A stretch of DNA of 64,000 bases from Nitrososphaeria archaeon. Lineage in GTDB: Archaea; Thermoproteota; Nitrososphaeria; JACIWG01. This document shows positions 6,427 through 56,935 of this stretch, piece by piece (the stretch's first letter is position 1; every line of letters begins with the position of its first letter). Below the pieces are notes generated by a model. That model did not search any database. It worked only from the letters and a program-made list of their open reading frames with translations, and was not told the origin of the DNA. A program made the position numbers and the translations under genes. The stretch is from assembly GCA_050011875.1 (NCBI GenBank), contig JBEKIG010000001.1, forward strand, positions 1 to 64,000. Reading direction: 5' to 3'.

Positions 6427-6963
6427 AACCGGAGTACAGGCTTAAGATTCCTTTAACCCTTTTTGCAAAGATCCTTGCCGACGATCACTGTCACCGTCAT
6501 ACCTGTCACCTTGGATACAATGTTATAGGCGACATAGGAGAGTAATAGTTGATCATATCGCCTTAGGGTGGAGGGGTAAGAATGTCCAAGTTTGAAGAAA
6601 AATGGGTTAGAGAACAGAGGCAGTTAAGAAACTTTGACATAATTACGGATTAAGCGAAAGAAGCACAATTGGTGAAATGTCGTAAGTGGTTTATGATGTG
6701 GAACAATATCGAACTTATCGGTCAATGTGATATAAGTTCTTGCTGAAACCTAACTTACACAGGGTTTTTCGCCAAAAATTAGCACAGACAAAAAATCATT
6801 TAGTTATGTGGAATTTCTATTTTAATGATTAATAAGGACGAAGGCTATTATGATGACGACAGACAAGGATACTTAAGTTAGTTGACCCCAAGCCCTTTTC
6901 TGTGAGTTCTTTAATTACCTTATCCATTTTTCCACCTTTATTTTTTGGTCAATTTGACTAATA

Positions 6964-39746: not shown

Positions 39747-41060
39747 ATGCCGCACAAGGAAAATTCAAAATACGATAGTATCGTGCCTGATATTAGACGG
39801 TGGCTTGATAACATAGAGCGTGGAAGTCCCCTCACCGCCGAAGTCGCGTTCAGAAGGCTTGGAAGAGCATGCGAACTGCTGAAACTCACTCCAAAGGAAA
39901 TGGTCGCGCGCGCAAGAGAAGACCTTAAAACATTCCAAGACAGCCTTGAAGACCTAGTCAACAGACTCGAAGAAGAGAAGAAGGCACCCCAGTACATAGC
40001 CGGCATACTCAAAAACGTCCGCTCATGGCTGAGATACAATGATATTACTCTTACTCGCAAGATCAAGATTAGGAATATATCATCTACGCCGACCATAGAA
40101 GACGAGCAGGTGCCATCGCAAGAAGAGTTAGCGAGAATATTCAGAAATTCCTCAAACAGAGCAAGATTGGCGGCTGTGTTGATGGCGTTCGCGGACCTAA
40201 GACCTGAATCAATAGGGAACTATAACGGCTCTGACGGACTAAAATTGAGCGACCTACCTGAAATAAGGATTGAGAACGGACAGGTTGTTTTCGATAAGAT
40301 GCCAACTATGATAGTTGTTAGGGCGTCGTTGAGTAAGGCAAGACACAAGCACTTCACTTTCCTTTCAAGCGAAGGCTTCACCTACTTGAAGGAATATCTT
40401 GAAGAAAGGATCAGATTGGGAGAGAAACTTACTGCAACTAGCCCGCTTATCACACACGAGAGAGTCGAAGCAGCAACAAAGCCATTCATGCTCACGAGAA
40501 AGATTACAGAACTCATTCGGAAAGCAATGAGGAAGGCAGGTGTGCGCAAGAGGCCTTATGTTCTCAGAGCGTACGCTGAAACACAGCTGATTATCGCGGA
40601 GTCAAAAGCAAAGATTTCTCATCCATATCTTCAATTCATAGCCGGACACAAGGGAGACATTGAAGCAAGATACTCTACTAACAAAGGTAGACTACCGCCG
40701 AACATGATCGAGGACATAAGGGAAGCATATAGGTTATGTGAGCCGTTTCTATCTACAATAGCACAGCCGATAGAGCAGATTACGATAATCAAGGAAGCGA
40801 AGATCGAAGCGTTGAAGAGCATTGCGAAGACCATGTTTGGGATAGACCTTCTTGAGGTGAAGATAGCGAAGGAGAATGAAGAAAACAAGGAGCTGACACA
40901 GGATGAAACAATCGAGCTGTTCGAATCTGAAATGAAGAAGACGAGGGAGCAGCCTGATCCGCAGGTAATAGTTGAAGAGAAAGAGCTCGAGAACTACCTC
41001 AAAGATGGATGGCAGTTCGTCAGCGTACTGCCGAGCCGAAGAGTACTAATAAGAAAGTAG
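39747..41060 (+). CDS. Tyrosine recombinase / site-specific integrase
   Basis: Catalytic set LRPE (R), SK, YVLR (Y for H, R), GH and ARY (Y); N-terminal SAM-like domain; C-terminal extension. Confidence 0.92.
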   Translation: MPHKENSKYDSIVPDIRRWLDNIERGSPLTAEVAFRRLGRACELLKLTPKEMVARAREDLKTFQDSLEDLVNRLEEEKKAPQYIAGILKNVRSWLRYNDITLTRKIKIRNISSTPTIEDEQVPSQEELARIFRNSSNRARLAAVLMAFADLRPESIGNYNGSDGLKLSDLPEIRIENGQVVFDKMPTMIVVRASLSKARHKHFTFLSSEGFTYLKEYLEERIRLGEKLTATSPLITHERVEAATKPFMLTRKITELIRKAMRKAGVRKRPYVLRAYAETQLIIAESKAKISHPYLQFIAGHKGDIEARYSTNKGRLPPNMIEDIREAYRLCEPFLSTIAQPIEQITIIKEAKIEALKSIAKTMFGIDLLEVKIAKENEENKELTQDETIELFESEMKKTREQPDPQVIVEEKELENYLKDGWQFVSVLPSRRVLIRK

Positions 41061-48800: not shown

Positions 48801-49137
48801 CTGGTGGTTCATTGTCTGGTCTGACGGAAGGGACCTCTTGGCAGATCATATACACAGTTTTCCGATAGATATAAAGAACTTCCCTGACAATTTTAAAGAA
48901 AAACTCAAACTATTGGTAAATGGTTTGATGGAAAATTATGATAAAACATCTAACATCAAAATAAACGTGAGATCTGGTGGATATGCTATAAAGATAAAGG
49001 AGATAATTCCATCCAAGTCAAAGAATATCATCGATCAGATTGATGAAATATTTGCAGATTACTTTGGATTCACAGAAGATGAAAGAAAATTCATCAGGGA
49101 ATTCGACATAGAATTCAGAATAAAAAGTGAGTCATAA
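45835..49137 (+). CDS. Type IIG restriction-modification fusion enzyme (Eco57I-like, N6-adenine methyltransferase)
   Basis: N-terminal PDY...EAE nuclease-like domain, YLNGGLF, GAYYTP, DPACGSG (motif I), GNPPY (motif IV), C-terminal LLNSSL target-recognition region. Confidence 0.9.
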   Translation: MLQTRLPVIQVSSEKKENLDKKLDEIYQNIKNRFKVFGTFQDVLTNSANYSSSNLKDEQAPEEFTKRTIIEPLIDLLGFEIVPETVLPSPGGRKEPDYIIRPKNQQSPVFYMEAEPLNTDLHSKGKGVWQVNDWLLSRASKTDYGIATDGFTWILLKFDIVSAQSKEVLKVNLSTILIRKLNPTAFISDDDIERAKSDFLTFDCEYISHFLEGYLEIIEKEKEEISKRFYSDYVRYVFGYDEAGNAIKGVSLFNKVVPPSATNDNDMKLFSVIFMNRIMFIRFLEEKRIVPKDLLKNLMDRYKSSGTPSTFYDTYLKPLFYDVFNKGKESRPSAVKSNPFYAQIPYLNGGLFREVVGNEGNYTIENEGVQLVIENLLEKYSFGLDSGINPDILGYIFEKTINFISGTGTNQQKMEGAYYTPDDVVEFIIDQTLTPIIFNKMIEGLKKAGWNDVDLKGYNSIEDIMDPQNIPKNPIHIKKMIESLETIKVLDPACGSGHFLTAMLSQILRVKEDLLITIKENIERYKLKRDIISQNLFGVDIDKNAVEIARLRLWLSIIEEVEDPQHVDTLPNIDFNIFVGNSLIGWFDENLLMHPLVGLLDDPDVQSTLHSLGASYGTKIDEVEERLRKNRLDDTIEAYRTLSEIYASESGERAVKIREILENIRNKLYEVINRSYLDFINRKGNLNKKIFYELGKNISNRMPFHWRIDFEHIIKEGGFDTIVGNPPYIEDRNYNMIDLEIIKCMRKGKKKVVEPLFFYSISCGNTYAYFIERSIELLKQNGKFGFIVPIALVSTDRMDDVREIIYKNSSEVKYYNFDDRPGKIFSGIEDCRSTIVITKKGTGVDKITTSKYHRWYTRDRPKVFKNLQTSDWYIVDPKGIVPKIGTNIEKAILNKLDQKSKGKTVENFVEDIGVKIWYHNAPRYWIHAHPENYLPSVEYYENYETNTDTGEVVLNNLKEKQISSHYKPLIFAKESFDGILGLLNSSLFYWWFIVWSDGRDLLADHIHSFPIDIKNFPDNFKEKLKLLVNGLMENYDKTSNIKINVRSGGYAIKIKEIIPSKSKNIIDQIDEIFADYFGFTEDERKFIREFDIEFRIKSES

Positions 49138-49347
49138 TTTTGCACTAATACGCCACTTTGCTACTCTTTTCTTGTAGACGTCAATCGTTTTGATACTTTC
49201 CCCGCTTTCCTTTCTAAAGCTAGATTATGTCAGATACAATATGGATCTACCAGTTGATAGACAGGCTGTGGAAAGTGCTTGACTTGTCCGGGGCAATACT
49301 TATTATACTAAATTTGCGTCATAAATTTAGCGGTAAAAACAAAGAAT

Positions 49348-49791
49348 TTGATTTACTGCTTTCTTCCATTAATTTCAGCAATGATATCTAATGTGATATT
49401 CTTGCTCCTCGCAAAGGCAGGAATGCGGTCAATGGGAGCTTCGGGTATAGACTATGGAATATTGGGGATAATTCTTGCAAACGTGTTAATGAATAGCACT
49501 TCTGGTGTAGAGTTTTATTTTCGAAAAATGTGCCGTGCTATTGTAGACAAATACAAACTACGTTTAACCATAATGAATTTAATTTATATTTTGAGCATCG
49601 CATTGTACTTAACTCTTCTCATTGCGATAGTGGGTTCCATCATTTCTCAACCATCAGATTTTCTAAACCTAAAACAAGGTGTAAACCCGATTGCGCACGC
49701 ATTCAGTTTTATGATCTCGTTTGCTGTATACCTTTTTATTGGTTTCAAGTATAGTAAGAGCCAAGTGATTAAGACATCTTTTTCGGCCTAA
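49348..49791 (+). pseudogene. Rhomboid-family intramembrane protease, probably 5'-truncated
   Basis: GASG catalytic Ser motif and AH catalytic His; N-terminal TM segments missing. Confidence 0.65.
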
Positions 49792-50086
49792 TGATGACTA
49801 TCCTATTGCCTCAAAAATCTGTCCATTGTTAAGAACCGCTATTATCTGCACAATACCAACAGGGTAAACGGTTTAGGGTGAGCCTTACCCTAAAAATAGA
49901 AAAGCAAGCCGGACATGAAAGCAAATATGCCTCTAAAGCGTCAAAAAAGGCGATTTTTATAGCTCTAAAATCGTCAACATGAGAGGGGGCTTGTCATTTT
50001 CTAAGGAATTTTGGGGGGGAACCGTGCGTGTATAATTAATTATAATATAAACCATTAAAATAATAGAATATTAGATTTTGCTCGAA

Positions 50087-50280
50087 CGGTGTCCCATTAT
50101 GTAATAATGGGACACCGACTGATGCAACATTATAGAATTATGTTGCATCGCTTTAAATAATAGAGCAAACATTCGTCATTTACCGAATATGTATTTATCG
50201 GTAATCAGTTAAATATGAGACAGAGGCTGACAAAAAAGGTAGCAAGCGCGAGTTGCCTATTATAAATTTATAGGTAACTC
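50087..50280. repeat. Array of four hairpins/palindromes with unrelated stems and a conserved 13-nt AT core
   Basis: Units at 50087-50117, 50121-50149, 50180-50204 and 50250-50280; ATGAGACAGAGGCT follows units 3 and 4. Confidence 0.85.
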
Positions 50281-50939
50281 ATTAAAGATGAGACAGAGGC
50301 TAAACAATAACGATAGAAAAATTGGACTTAATCCTTCCATATGTTATTTACCCAAGGAGATATAACTGACAAACGTAAGTCGTAAGGAATAATGTTCTTA
50401 TACGTAGCTACCTAGCGTTTGGCGTAATAATCGCTACTGCTCTGAACGACTCCTTGGCTCACACGACGTATCTGGAAGCACCGATATTAAAACAATGAAA
50501 GCATTTTATAATGCATCAAAAAGCGATGCAAAACCCTAATTGGCCTAACTGCGGAATAAGCATCAAAGTAATATTGTTAATGCCATGGCAGAAGACGGTA
50601 ATGAAAGGATTATTGCCAAAGTTTGATAAATAAACCTATCAAGATATGTCAAACCATGGAGAAAAGTTAGGTTTTAGACAGATATCCTCTGGTTATACAT
50701 GCAAAAAGTTATATAATAAAATGGGTAAGTTTTATAAACCCACCCACCCCCTTATAAACCAACCCCACCCGCCTGAGACCCGCCGTCCACGAGCAAGTTG
50801 GCCTAAAGGTGTGATCTACAATATGAGAAAGGAAAGAGAGCTGTTGGATTTAGTTGGGGATGGTTATGAGTAGAACCGTTGATATAACAGTGATTAAAGA
50901 TTTTGCGATACAACAGGTTTTCTACGGAGATGTTAGCAA

Positions 50940-51122
50940 ATGAAGCACTACCTAATACGCGTGATAAAATATTGTTGGAACCCACTTACAAAAAGCGTGC
51001 AGCAAAAGCCCGTAGCCAGCAAAAGCATTTCCATGCCCAAAGACCTAGATGCTAACACCATAAAAAATGTTCTGAACCTATTGACAAAGGAACTTTCCAC
51101 GCAAAAAGTTGATGAACAATGA
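50940..51122 (+). CDS. Small hypothetical protein
   Basis: 60 aa; ATGA overlap with the downstream ORF. Confidence 0.4.
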   Translation: MKHYLIRVIKYCWNPLTKSVQQKPVASKSISMPKDLDANTIKNVLNLLTKELSTQKVDEQ

Positions 51123-51490
51123 TAAAGTCCAAGGATCTCTCTAAGGCCCACAAGACAGGAGAGGAAGAGCAGGACGTTCAAATTGAGCTCGAAAGGGAGC
51201 TGAGCAGACTTCAGAGCTTAACGGGCCTAAACGGTAATCTAAAGGTCAATTGGATCCCGGATGGAAGCAGAGAGGTTCACGGTGAAGTCATAAGCGACGT
51301 AATCCACGTCTACGATGAAGACTTGGAGGAAGCGATTCGAACCCTAAAACACGAGTTCGTAGACTACTGTATAACAAGGGAAGTTGTCACACCTCTTGTC
51401 GACCTCGTGAACGCCTTGATAAAGAGCAGGGAAGCTGAAGTCTACAGGAGAAAGGAGAAGTTGGTAGAACTCTTTTCAAGCCTTATATAA
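51119..51490 (+). CDS. Element-associated hypothetical protein with a zincin-like HExxD motif
   Basis: GEV...IHVYD...TLKHEFVDY; synonymously diverged fragments elsewhere in the window support coding status. Confidence 0.8.
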   Translation: MIKSKDLSKAHKTGEEEQDVQIELERELSRLQSLTGLNGNLKVNWIPDGSREVHGEVISDVIHVYDEDLEEAIRTLKHEFVDYCITREVVTPLVDLVNALIKSREAEVYRRKEKLVELFSSLI

Positions 51491-51687
51491 ACCGTACTTC
51501 TCATAGAGACTATAAGAAAGCTGAATGATTACATATTAGATAAATCATGAATAATACTAAGAGTCATTATTAGAAAGAAGTCTTAATCACGTGTTCTTAC
51601 CATACCTTTGACATGTTCGGTTCTTTTGCCTCTCAAAGCTAGGTTAAAAGTTTAAATCATTTTCTTTTAATTTATTACTGTCAAATT

Positions 51688-52332
51688 ATGCGCATGGAAG
51701 TAAGGTTAGAGGTTGACGAAAATTTTCAGGAATTTGCCAGAAAAATTGGTAAATCACCTAAAGAGGTTCTCCAGCAACTGTCTGAGACCATCTGGCTTGC
51801 ACGTCTTCCTTTGACAGAGAGGCTTAAGAACGGTGTGGATCTTCGAGCCTCTTTGCTTGAGACATACGATTTAGCAGAACTGGGATGGCGAATAGACGAC
51901 TATATAAGAAAAGCACTTGAATTGAAGGTTGATGAATTTGTTCTAGACGACAGCGAAGTTAATCTTGAAGACCAGCACTATTTTCTTGCTTATTCTGCTA
52001 ATTCGAACTCCAATGGGAAAGTATCGTCGGTATACGTTATATTAGATAAAGGATCAGCAGAACTGATTTGTGACGGATGCGTTGAGGAAAAACAATTGCT
52101 ATCCAAAATAAAAGCAGTTACGGAAGATCTTGATGAACACTATGACACTTTTGGAAAACTGGACGGATTTAGTGAACTGATGGATAGTGACCACGAATTC
52201 AATTTTGAAGAAGAGGATGAGCCACCGTATAATTATTCGCTCACAGTAAATGCAGACGAACTAGGATACCTACCAACCGTATCCCAAATCTCAAAATTGT
52301 TCAGCAAGATAGAAGAGATAGCGTCAACGTAG
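51688..52332 (+). CDS. Acidic hypothetical protein, possible N-terminal ribbon-helix-helix
   Basis: 214-aa ORF with TTTAAA box upstream; MEVRLEVDE...FARKIGKSPKEVL. Confidence 0.65.
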   Translation: MRMEVRLEVDENFQEFARKIGKSPKEVLQQLSETIWLARLPLTERLKNGVDLRASLLETYDLAELGWRIDDYIRKALELKVDEFVLDDSEVNLEDQHYFLAYSANSNSNGKVSSVYVILDKGSAELICDGCVEEKQLLSKIKAVTEDLDEHYDTFGKLDGFSELMDSDHEFNFEEEDEPPYNYSLTVNADELGYLPTVSQISKLFSKIEEIAST

Positions 52333-52662
52333 AAGGTATAGACCTCATTTGTTTCCTCCTTTAATTTCAACTGAATTTCAGGTGAACAATACACGAACCA
52401 TTGGTTCTATCAATCACGTCCATGGTCATCACCACATCTCGACCCCAGTAATTCTTATTTCCTATCCTTGAGTACAAAAGATAGCTTTCCATAATGGTTA
52501 TTTCGCGGTATTCTGTTTTACAAAAAGGTTTTAAAATATCAGACTATTTTTTTTCCACTTCCACTTTTGTCGATTTCAAAATGGATAATCAAGAATAAAT
52601 CTGATGTGTGAAGTGGGATTTCAATACTAATCTACTGGTAAATTATTAGATTCAAGTTCGGT

Positions 52663-52695
52663 GGGGTTTCTGACCTTAATTAAGTGCAGATACCT
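52663..52695. repeat. 33-bp sequence, exact reverse complement of 1724-1756
   Basis: GGGGTTTCTGACCTTAATTAAGTGCAGATACCT. Confidence 0.95.
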
Positions 52696-53094
52696 AATGA
52701 AATTTATGTTTAACCGTTATATTATAATTAGGTTTTGTTGAAATTTTTGATTTAATTATAATAACAGTCAACTGTAGGTTTGCTACCTTAAAATCATAAT
52801 CTTAACAGTTTAAGCAATTTTATGGGGGTCTATCTTGAAAAAGTTAACCATGACATTTTTAATTATTTAGTCTCTTAATTTAGTGGTTTGAAGGTGTATA
52901 TAATTAATGGCATTCTGTCTCCTATTCTGGAAAATTGTAGCCAGAGTCGGATGGAATGAATCAATAATAAATTCAACTTTACGTTTTTCTGAATGCGTCG
53001 TTAATATAAGATGTACAGTTACACTTCGATAATTTTTATGTTTAGAATCTTAAAAGCCTGCCTTAAACATTCTGAGTAGTCATAAATTGAAAAG

Positions 53095-55475: not shown

Positions 55476-55583
55476 AAAGTTTATATTATGTTGTTATTTG
55501 GACTGTTTTGGCCAAAATTCTCCATCAATTGGTTCTTGAGCCATCAAAGGGGGCTCAACTTATGAGCCCTCAACATTTTGGCC
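55476..55583 (-). repeat. Copy 1 of a ~108-bp inverted repeat containing TTTTGGCCAAAA palindromes
   Basis: Reverse complement of 56829-56935, with exact blocks of 36 and 21 bp. Confidence 0.9.
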
Positions 55584-56598: not shown

Positions 56599-56669
56599 TC
56601 TATAGGAGAAAGGAGAAACTGGTAGACCTCTTTTCAAGCCTAATATAAACCGCAATTCTCATAGGGACT
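56599..56669 (+). repeat. Diverged copy of the 3' end and downstream site of ORF 51119-51490
   Basis: YRRKEKLVDLFSSLI* followed by ACCGCAATTCTCATAGGGACT, vs 51441-51511. Confidence 0.9.
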
Positions 56670-56828: not shown

Positions 56829-56935
56829 GGCCAAAATGTTGAGGGCTCAAAAACTAAGCCCCCATTCATCCGTCAAGAACCAATTGATGGAGAATTTTGG
56901 CCAAAACACCCAAATAATTAAATAATATAAGCTTT
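56829..56935 (+). repeat. Copy 2 of the ~108-bp inverted repeat, directly upstream of the aldolase
   Basis: See 55476-55583. Confidence 0.9.

Follow-up and report, generated by a model that had tools for sequence, protein, structure and literature searches.

What might a cluster of hairpins be for, when each stem is self-complementary but spelled differently and the centre stays the same? The question is raised by four palindromes at 50087–50280 on the + strand of a stretch of Nitrososphaeria DNA. They lie in 1.3 kb of non-coding sequence, and an earlier reading made from the letters alone (the sequence-only reading) had likened them to tandem dif/Xer or integron sites inside an integrase island. 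We studied this array in the window, by which we mean the whole 64,000-nucleotide (nt) stretch under analysis (contig C1:1–64000), and in the assembly to which it belongs (2,643,350 bases, 119 contigs, 40.8% G+C). The array is real, statistically solid and structurally constrained, yet it is a singleton. Judging by sequence, it is not a relative of dif or attC and is not tied to the integrase family in the sets searched; the simplest view is of a regulatory module, duplicated locally within a scrambled island. In what follows we establish the palindromes and their uniqueness, how their arms covary, their duplication history and the fixed spacing of a downstream motif.

Anatomy, history and singularity of the array

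The palindromes, here U1 to U4, share the core pattern AWTATRDAWTWAT, a 13-nt AT-only centre, as the sequence-only reading had described. U1 (50087–50117) has nine outer pairs around ATTATGTAATAAT and is paired through to a 3-nt loop; in a repeat search its 14-nt arms were 100% complementary, with a 3-nt gap. U2 spans 50121–50149, or 50120–50150 when a terminal T.G is counted with its eight Watson–Crick pairs around ATTATAGAATTAT (13-nt arms, 92% complementary in the repeat search). U3 (50180–50204) has six outer pairs around AATATGTATTTAT, and U4 (50250–50280) has nine around ATTATAAATTTAT, one of them a G.T wobble, which like the T.G of U2 pairs on the + strand only. The units are 25–31 nt long, their outer stems contain no bulges, and the gaps between them (2, 29 and 45 nt) contain no genes. 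In all four, the symmetry axis falls on a single base, the centres being GTA, AGA, GTA and AAA. Pairing continues through the core in U1 only, the halves of the U2–U4 core being nearer to a direct repeat; the core is not maintained as a palindrome.

A further palindrome, U0 (50031–50044, no strand assigned), lies to the left of the four. It is a perfect, AT-only, TATA-like palindrome of 14 nt, read directly from the sequence and kept in both copies of a 170-nt repeat that we describe below. To the right of U0, U2, U3 and U4, a TTAAA starts 17.5, 18, 17 and 17 nt from the respective centres and is followed by AT(A)GAG. These tails, all on the + strand, are found at 50055–50068 (tail 0, TTAAA then AATAGAA), 50153–50165 (tail 2, TTAAATAATAGAG, with 12 of 13 letters as in tail 0), 50209–50228 (tail 3, TTAAAT then ATGAGACAGAGGCT) and 50282–50301 (tail 4, TTAAAG then ATGAGACAGAGGCT). 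No unit has a mirror-image tail on its left. We could confirm that ATGAGACAGAGGCT follows U3 and U4 (at 50215 and 50288, each 16 nt past the core); it has no other exact copy in the genome, and allowing one mismatch adds one further site only. Mini-ORFs (open reading frames) of 16 and 25 codons starting from the two ATGAGAC motifs have only their first five residues in common and were not taken as genes.

The array grew by local duplication: over 68 nt (50180–50245 versus 50253–50319) the modules of U3 and U4 share 78% identity, tails 0 and 2 agree in 12 of 13 letters, and U1 resembles U3. The U3/U4 likeness corresponds to a tandem duplication of about 73 nt that includes the flanks, and within their stems the two units differ by one compensatory pair change (CCG/CGG to CCT/AGG) and by a change of one A-T to G.T. 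Spaced 90 nt apart, U1 and U3 have core regions that are 74% identical in the repeat search, and a 13-mer standing before U1 returns 97 nt on, past U2, with 12 of its 13 letters. The sequence-only reading had called the outer arms self-complementary within each unit and unrelated between units; the first part holds, whereas the second does not, given the tandem duplication of U3/U4 and the likeness of U1 to U3.

The core pattern has 28 matches in the genome (both strands). A flanking stem of at least six pairs is present at four of them, which are the array units (6, 9, 9 and 9 pairs), and the other 24 have five pairs or fewer. Six simulated genomes generated by a third-order Markov chain contained 8–25 core matches, none with a stem of at least six pairs. 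As the core pattern was derived from the four units themselves, the stems are the independent part of this test, and with four stemmed cores against none, the motif is more frequent than chance, in line with the sequence-only reading. Permitting one mismatch in the core added four scattered matches, and permitting two gave 38 matches in total. Folding gave a similar picture: on the + strand, 50070–50320 reaches −78.7 kcal/mol compared with −43.5 ± 4.3 for 200 shuffles (z −8.25), and the − strand has a z of −6.4. When the four units are aligned, 91.7% of the stem cells are paired, against 25–39% with the partner column slid, and eight of the nine stem pairs have changed on both sides, a value reached by 0 of 500 shuffles; one of the nine outer columns is invariant. 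The idea that structure and centre are conserved while arm sequence varies was thus well founded. With regard to hairpins in general, the genome has 675 with at least eight Watson–Crick pairs and six places where three fall within 250 nt, one of the six being the array. The densest other palindrome cluster, at C6:5534–5906, comprises seven palindromes (five in one 250-nt span), mostly on TTTATAG/CTATAAA arms, with CCCC at the centre of two; an origin or a complex regulatory region is conceivable there.

We searched for relatives of the array with a covariance model, R1, built on the four units (31 positions, 9 pairs). R1 requires this particular core, and arrays with a different centre would escape it. 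In its own genome, with E values up to 10, it returned the four units (41.9, 38.8, 34.5 and 39.4 bits for U1 to U4) and their reverse strands, and nothing more. The best match in 60 relatives had an E value of 0.28. Of 150 genomes sampled from the class, some of them shared with the 60 relatives (about 200 genomes together), ten had a single match each (E 0.014–0.44) and there were no clusters; the best of these matches was a lone TATA-like palindrome between divergent genes. No units were found in the same-genus genome (G001), and a scan of viral contigs for the core followed by N16 and the tail gave 0 matches.

Three sequencing runs, all of peat metagenome DNA and two of them possibly the source, hold the stretch. 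Their records over 48976–52692, 49107–51198 and 49820–50182 contain 0 differing letters; one run contig (X3) ends at 50182, with a depth of 3.6. The sequence-only reading had suggested a search for loss or shuffling of units, and in the contigs of the three runs we found no variants of the array, in unit number or otherwise. A joint 49082→52665, considered as a 3.6-kb deletion variant, proved to be false because of a paralogous patch at C11:117355–117779. Around it, a patchwork spans C11:117318–117779: three pieces stand joined in 460 nt, namely the final ~85 codons of a type IIG restriction gene copy, a copy of window positions 52665–52722, and window positions 51500–51527 copied in inverted orientation.

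Candidate promoter/stem-loop modules

Our preferred reading, which we hold tentatively and would place somewhat short of probable, is that the array consists of strain-specific, tandem, diverged composite promoter/stem-loop modules of a mosaic mobile island. Here we infer promoter activity, its strand and the effects of the hairpins. Each module would comprise an AT-rich, TATA-like centre, TTAAA about 17 nt on, and AT(A)GAG about 5 nt further, where transcription would start, and all modules would be oriented rightwards, to ORFs 50940, 51119 and 51688. A transcript from an upstream module would fold into a hairpin at the next module or, alternatively, a cruciform might be extruded at the module by negative supercoiling. 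Upstream transcripts could be attenuated, insulated or stabilised by either structure, with the next one starting from this same DNA, and repeated deletions between modules, of the type known for the promoter-early stem-loop (PeSL) cassettes of phages, could leave tandem modules devoid of genes.

The spacing within the modules is compatible with this scheme. Archaeal promoters are described (PMC5316973) as starting transcription at a purine, with the TATA box centred near −27 and a proximal element rich in A/T at about −10. With the TATA-like centre placed near −27, an A/T-rich element falls at about −10 and a purine lies about 26 nt from the centre in four of the five units, the exception being U1. 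U4 contains TTATAA 28 nt and TATAAA 27 nt before the ATG at 50288. In this genome, the distribution of TATA-like hexamers ahead of the ATG, taken over 1,795 long ORFs, has one peak at −31 to −29, indicating leaderless mRNAs, and another at −41 to −36; tRNA genes have TTTAWATA-type boxes at about −38 to −30, preceded by an A-rich stretch (AAAA-N2-). The complementary arms also count in favour of these modules, their wobbles being compatible with the + strand alone, the strand along which the tails run. PeSL stem-loops, for their part, are reported to lie between or overlap promoter boxes, to terminate upstream transcription and to be clustered in hyperplastic regions, where recombination between PeSLs deletes the genes they flank (PMC2839356).

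U0 ends a non-coding segment that occurs twice in the genome. This 170-nt repeat (49870–50047, + strand; second copy at C1:171180–171347) is 82% identical over its last ~108 nt by BLAST (49940–50047 versus C1:171240–171347). A MAFFT alignment carries the likeness back to about 49870, and it stops just past the palindrome, as expected of a duplicated promoter region driving different DNA. RNA structure of the repeat was not significant (z −1.08). Both copies, which close with the palindrome TATAATTAATTATA, are located in restriction-modification islands. Scanning metagenomes for a 23-mer of the repeat gave two contigs, each 100% identical to this genome. Elsewhere, C1:171680–171958 and C4:57181–57459 are inverted copies, 80% identical, of a 280-nt non-coding element with a 30-nt tandem repeat and with quasi-palindromes of a G-run plus TATATATA; the C4 copy is close to tRNA-Arg.

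Several observations weigh against promoter/stem-loop modules. We did not find a B recognition element (BRE) rich in A before any of the centres, though the tRNA promoters of the genome have one. By the hexamer test, a canonical TATA hexamer is present only in U0 and U4, U1–U3 having a G near the centre, and a tail is missing from U1. In its loose form the tail motif is common, with 100 matches across the genome; all that sets it apart here is its register with the palindromes, and duplication accounts for part of that register. Complementary arms are not needed for promoter function, and archaeal termination is known to depend on U-tracts, not on hairpins. Nor was a homologous array available for comparison in the ~200 related genomes. 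Finally, changes in palindromes that look compensatory can arise without selection, by quasipalindrome template-switching (PMC7202029).

The same data can be read as a structured non-coding RNA, an explanation that we consider unlikely; the sequence-only reading had named a small-RNA array and an element origin among its alternatives. A single + strand transcript starting at about 50065–50076, from the TATA-like U0, would carry four hairpins whose AU-rich apical motif forms a multi-copy platform for binding a protein or an RNA, on the principle of tandem iron-responsive elements or of the CsrB/RsmZ sponges. The z of −8.25 for the + strand fold, the covariation of the stems and the wobble pairs that fit this strand only would all suit such an RNA. 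Moreover, the apical sequence is kept although it is unpaired in U2–U4, which points to sequence-specific reading of an unpaired loop, and both copies of the 170-nt repeat are followed by 570–870 nt without a convincing gene, with a 9-pair hairpin with an AT-rich apex about 75 nt past copy 2. However, palindromes fold on paper equally well whether transcribed or not, the 'loop' of U1 is fully paired, there is no candidate binding protein, and the promoter-like register of the tails is left unexplained. Besides the lack of a homologue in the ~200 related genomes, no Rfam family was matched: Rfam 15 gave 0 matches at gathering scores in the window and, in 49700–51200 with E values up to 5, three sub-threshold matches of 16–18 bits against cut-offs of 34–100. 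A search of the window for tRNA and tmRNA found none. A role as terminators on the − strand, where U4 is followed by T6 at 12 nt, was rejected, as the wobbles become A.C mismatches there and R1 scores are lower; such terminators are a minor possibility inside the RNA explanation. CRISPR-repeat mimicry was likewise dropped because a k-mer scan of the genome gave no CRISPR array.

The island and the remaining explanations

The sequence-only reading had assigned the array to an island with an integrase at 39747, and both assignments stand. ORF 39747 (39747–41060, + strand) is a tyrosine recombinase by its predicted fold: an AlphaFold2 model built with 14 homologues (pLDDT, the predicted local distance difference test, 73.5) matched XerA (5hxy, E 2.5e-7), IntI (2a3v), Cre and lambda Int in Foldseek with a probability of 1.00. 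Sequence searches of Pfam, NCBIfam, PHROGs and PDB gave no match to this ORF, and a PDB profile search with the integrase alignment produced summed TALE-repeat matches with no single significant stretch, which we took as spurious. Invariant across the 14 homologues are R152, K197, Y271, R274, H301 and Y309, presumably the catalytic set from the spacing familiar in this family. Among one-per-species genomes, the family has 285 relatives, in metagenome-assembled genomes of Nitrososphaeria, Bathyarchaeia, Thermoplasmata and Hadesarchaea; the closest, from a Nitrososphaeria archaeon, is 89% identical. The genome that carries the array has four further matches to the integrase family. The region is a mosaic mobile island; synteny with the same-genus genome extends up to 39536 and thereafter breaks into scattered pieces.

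Downstream of the array, ORF 50940 (60 aa) and ORF 51119 (123 aa) form a conserved mobile-element gene pair (50940–51490, + strand). Of 301 genomes in the class, 32 carry homologues of ORF 51119, and in 16 of 20 other places the homologue stands tail-to-tail with an integrase homologue, about 15–75 nt apart; this count omits one further place, in an unpublished genome, with the same arrangement. In the window, the two genes are 10 kb apart on the same strand, and in the same-genus genome they are convergent and 5.7 kb apart. The layout in the window fits an inversion, or an insertion of cargo exactly between their 3′ ends; an inverted att copy at 41060 was not found. Between them lie a truncated HAD hydrolase, a glyoxalase, an ABC transporter, an HTH_10 regulator, an intact type IIG restriction-methylase, a rhomboid fragment, the 170-nt repeat and the array. 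With respect to ORF 50940 itself (50940–51122), its start looks by eye like the short strand-then-helix of ribbon-helix-helix regulators, with no library match, and it has paralogues on C20 and, beside another integrase, at C16:77014–77181. A copy of the gene pair in the same-genus genome (locus L033, ~6630–6800, contig G001:C19) adjoins the end of a CRISPR array with a 35-nt repeat.

A 71-nt direct repeat (51441–51511 versus 56599–56669, 89% identical) appears att-like, that is, of the kind left by integrases; it consists of the last 50 nt of ORF 51119 plus 20 nt and is unlike the hairpins. Between its two copies stand ORF 51688 and three genes for oxidoreductases or epimerases, but not an integrase, and related copies are present in the same-genus genome. 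The epimerase gene lies between the arms of an inverted repeat of about 108 nt (55476–55583 and 56829–56935; 86% identity), which may be a small mobile repeat, since one arm matches sequence of the same-genus genome at 99% identity. To the right of the array, 50411–50476 (− strand) is a 66-nt remnant of a gene end, corresponding to about 20 last codons of a gene like C4:52342–53406. It is an 81% nucleotide match to C4:53340–53407 and to the same-genus genome, with eight identical residues by tblastn and no further likeness.

Surroundings of this kind, made up of a 66-nt gene-end remnant, a rhomboid fragment, duplicated ends of restriction genes and att-like repeats, are debris, and the array could belong to it. 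The palindromes would then have no present function, being by-products of repeated local duplication in decaying mobile DNA that were maintained or perfected by template-switching in quasipalindromes during replication, a type of mutation that has been documented (PMC7202029). The array stands alone, with no counterpart in the same-genus genome or in any other that was searched, which agrees with this view. It is harder to reconcile with four or five different palindromes built on a similar 13-nt centre with a fixed downstream motif, which need a common cause, or with the 24 other core copies that have no stems and the mere six palindrome clusters in the genome at the threshold used. On balance, absence of function seems to us improbable, to about the same degree as a structured RNA.

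Still less likely, though worth stating, is a new kind of recognition site, in which, on single-stranded or extruded nucleic acid, a stem of any sequence would present the conserved AWTAT-N3-WTWAT apex to a mobile-element protein for nicking, recombination or RNA binding, the tandem units acting as a bank or sponge.

Sites for recombination or nicking on folded single-stranded DNA or cruciforms, used by the island recombinase or by host Xer and possibly representing emptied cassette sites, are in our view very unlikely. A tyrosine recombinase is encoded 9 kb away, the array sits inside the 10-kb segment that parts two genes adjacent in 16 of 20 other places, and inverted arms around a short centre are the general shape of tyrosine-recombinase core sites (PMC8371274); the inner stem of U2 (AAC...GTT) even resembles an integron R box. 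Yet the arms, which a recombinase would read, vary, and the centre, which needs to match only between partners, is conserved. The axis on a base leaves no 6-bp spacer, bulged bases and intervening genes are lacking in these units of 25–31 nt, the att-like repeats actually present in the island are unrelated to the hairpins, and the contigs of the three runs contain no variants in unit number.

The distribution of the motif points the same way. The sequence-only reading expected it to accompany homologues of the integrase or of ORF 51119 and named lack of co-occurrence with the integrase family as an outcome that would speak against it. This lack is what we found in the sets searched, because R1 detected nothing in 116 loci: around ORF 51119 and integrase homologues (36 loci, 380,670 bases) it gave four matches with E values of 1.5–6.3 and none lower, and around 80 further integrase homologues with 10-kb flanks (1,087,696 bases) a single match with an E value of 1.8. 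A simpler scan of the first 20 ORF 51119/integrase loci found no array, and there was none upstream of four paralogues or orthologues of the ORF 50940/51119 pair. A generic scan of 117 loci (1,463,839 bases) for clusters of at least three hairpins found three; the one beside an integrase (L129) falls within a 302-aa transposase-like ORF and was rejected.

The least probable explanation, a replication origin or the remnant of one from a plasmid or virus, would use the AT-rich stretch at 50030–50080 for unwinding, between G-runs (GGGGGGG and GAGGGGG, 49990–50020) and several extrudable palindromes, a layout with a similar G-run and TATA-like palindromes near the second 170-nt copy, but no replication gene (Orc1/Cdc6, MCM, primase-polymerase or Rep) is present among the scanned ORFs of either island, no repeated initiator-binding box is evident, and nothing comparable occurs near the integrase family elsewhere. 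The 170-nt repeat as an origin beside Orc1/Cdc6 was also discarded; its second copy belongs to a different island, one that has zinc-ribbon ORFs and type I restriction genes. As a separate observation, 50732–50770, within the doubtful 75-codon ORF 50646, consists of two tandem 19-nt units of TTATAAAC followed by a C-run (on the other strand, a G-run plus TATA), like the G-run and TATA-like layout at 50010–50044.

Comparison with known systems

The main value of the array at present is as a worked negative, since the resemblances to dif, to attC and to an integrase-linked family of sites that first suggested themselves do not hold. Both the dif/Xer and the integron readings fail because the units lack the defining features of these sites and because R1 revealed no co-occurrence with integrase loci.

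Like attC, the array keeps its structure while its sequence varies, can be read as folded single strands and comes as tandem units. In attC, the outer R″/R′ boxes (RYYYAAC ... GTTRRRY) are kept and the middle varies, bulged bases are present, and sites of 57–141 nt close cassettes next to an IntI/attI platform. In the array, in contrast, the centre is kept, the stems are perfect and free of extrahelical bases, the units remain below 57 nt, there are no cassettes, and the recombinase is encoded at a distance. R and L boxes are missing: only U2 comes near the attC boxes (ATGCAAC ... GTTGCAT, one mismatch each), at the inner end of its stem, and U1, U3 and U4 have no AAC...GTT.

With dif, including the archaeal XerA/dif pair, the array has in common the AT-rich inner part of a short inverted repeat and a tyrosine recombinase, here encoded in the island. 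The dif site has conserved 11-bp arms and a 6-bp spacer, occurs once per chromosome and is kept among relatives, as described by Cortez et al. 2010 (PMC2958812). The array lacks this 11-6-11 layout: its arms are variable, its centre is of odd length, and it has four tandem units and no relative. A 6-bp spacer is in fact impossible in these units because an axis on a single base allows only odd spacers.

Another comparison is with the canonical archaeal promoter in its published description (PMC5316973), with which the array shares an AT-rich centre, TTAAA about 17 nt on, a purine about 26 nt on and a single orientation. It differs in having no A-rich BRE, in that three of five centres have no canonical TATA hexamer, and in the complementary, GC-containing arms that flank the box.

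The nearest parallel to promoter/stem-loop modules is offered by the PeSL cassettes of T4-type phages. The PeSLs (Arbiol et al. 2010, PMC2839356) and, on our reading, the array units are alike composite and non-coding, combining promoter elements, here putative, with a stem-loop that varies in sequence and stands between or over them; each set also clusters where its mobile genome is most plastic. PeSLs, however, carry sigma-70 boxes, flank ORFan genes, number dozens per genome, are common to several phages and have measured activities (PMC2839356), whereas the array, known from its letters only, has a putative archaeal promoter whose TATA-like box would lie in the loop, carries no genes between its units, and occurs at a single locus of one genome, with no copies in the relatives searched. 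If active, the modules would be an archaeal counterpart of the phage promoter/stem-loop cassettes in which the TATA box lies within the hairpin loop, providing a compact way of ending one transcript and starting the next, and possibly a substrate for gene shuffling in archaeal islands.

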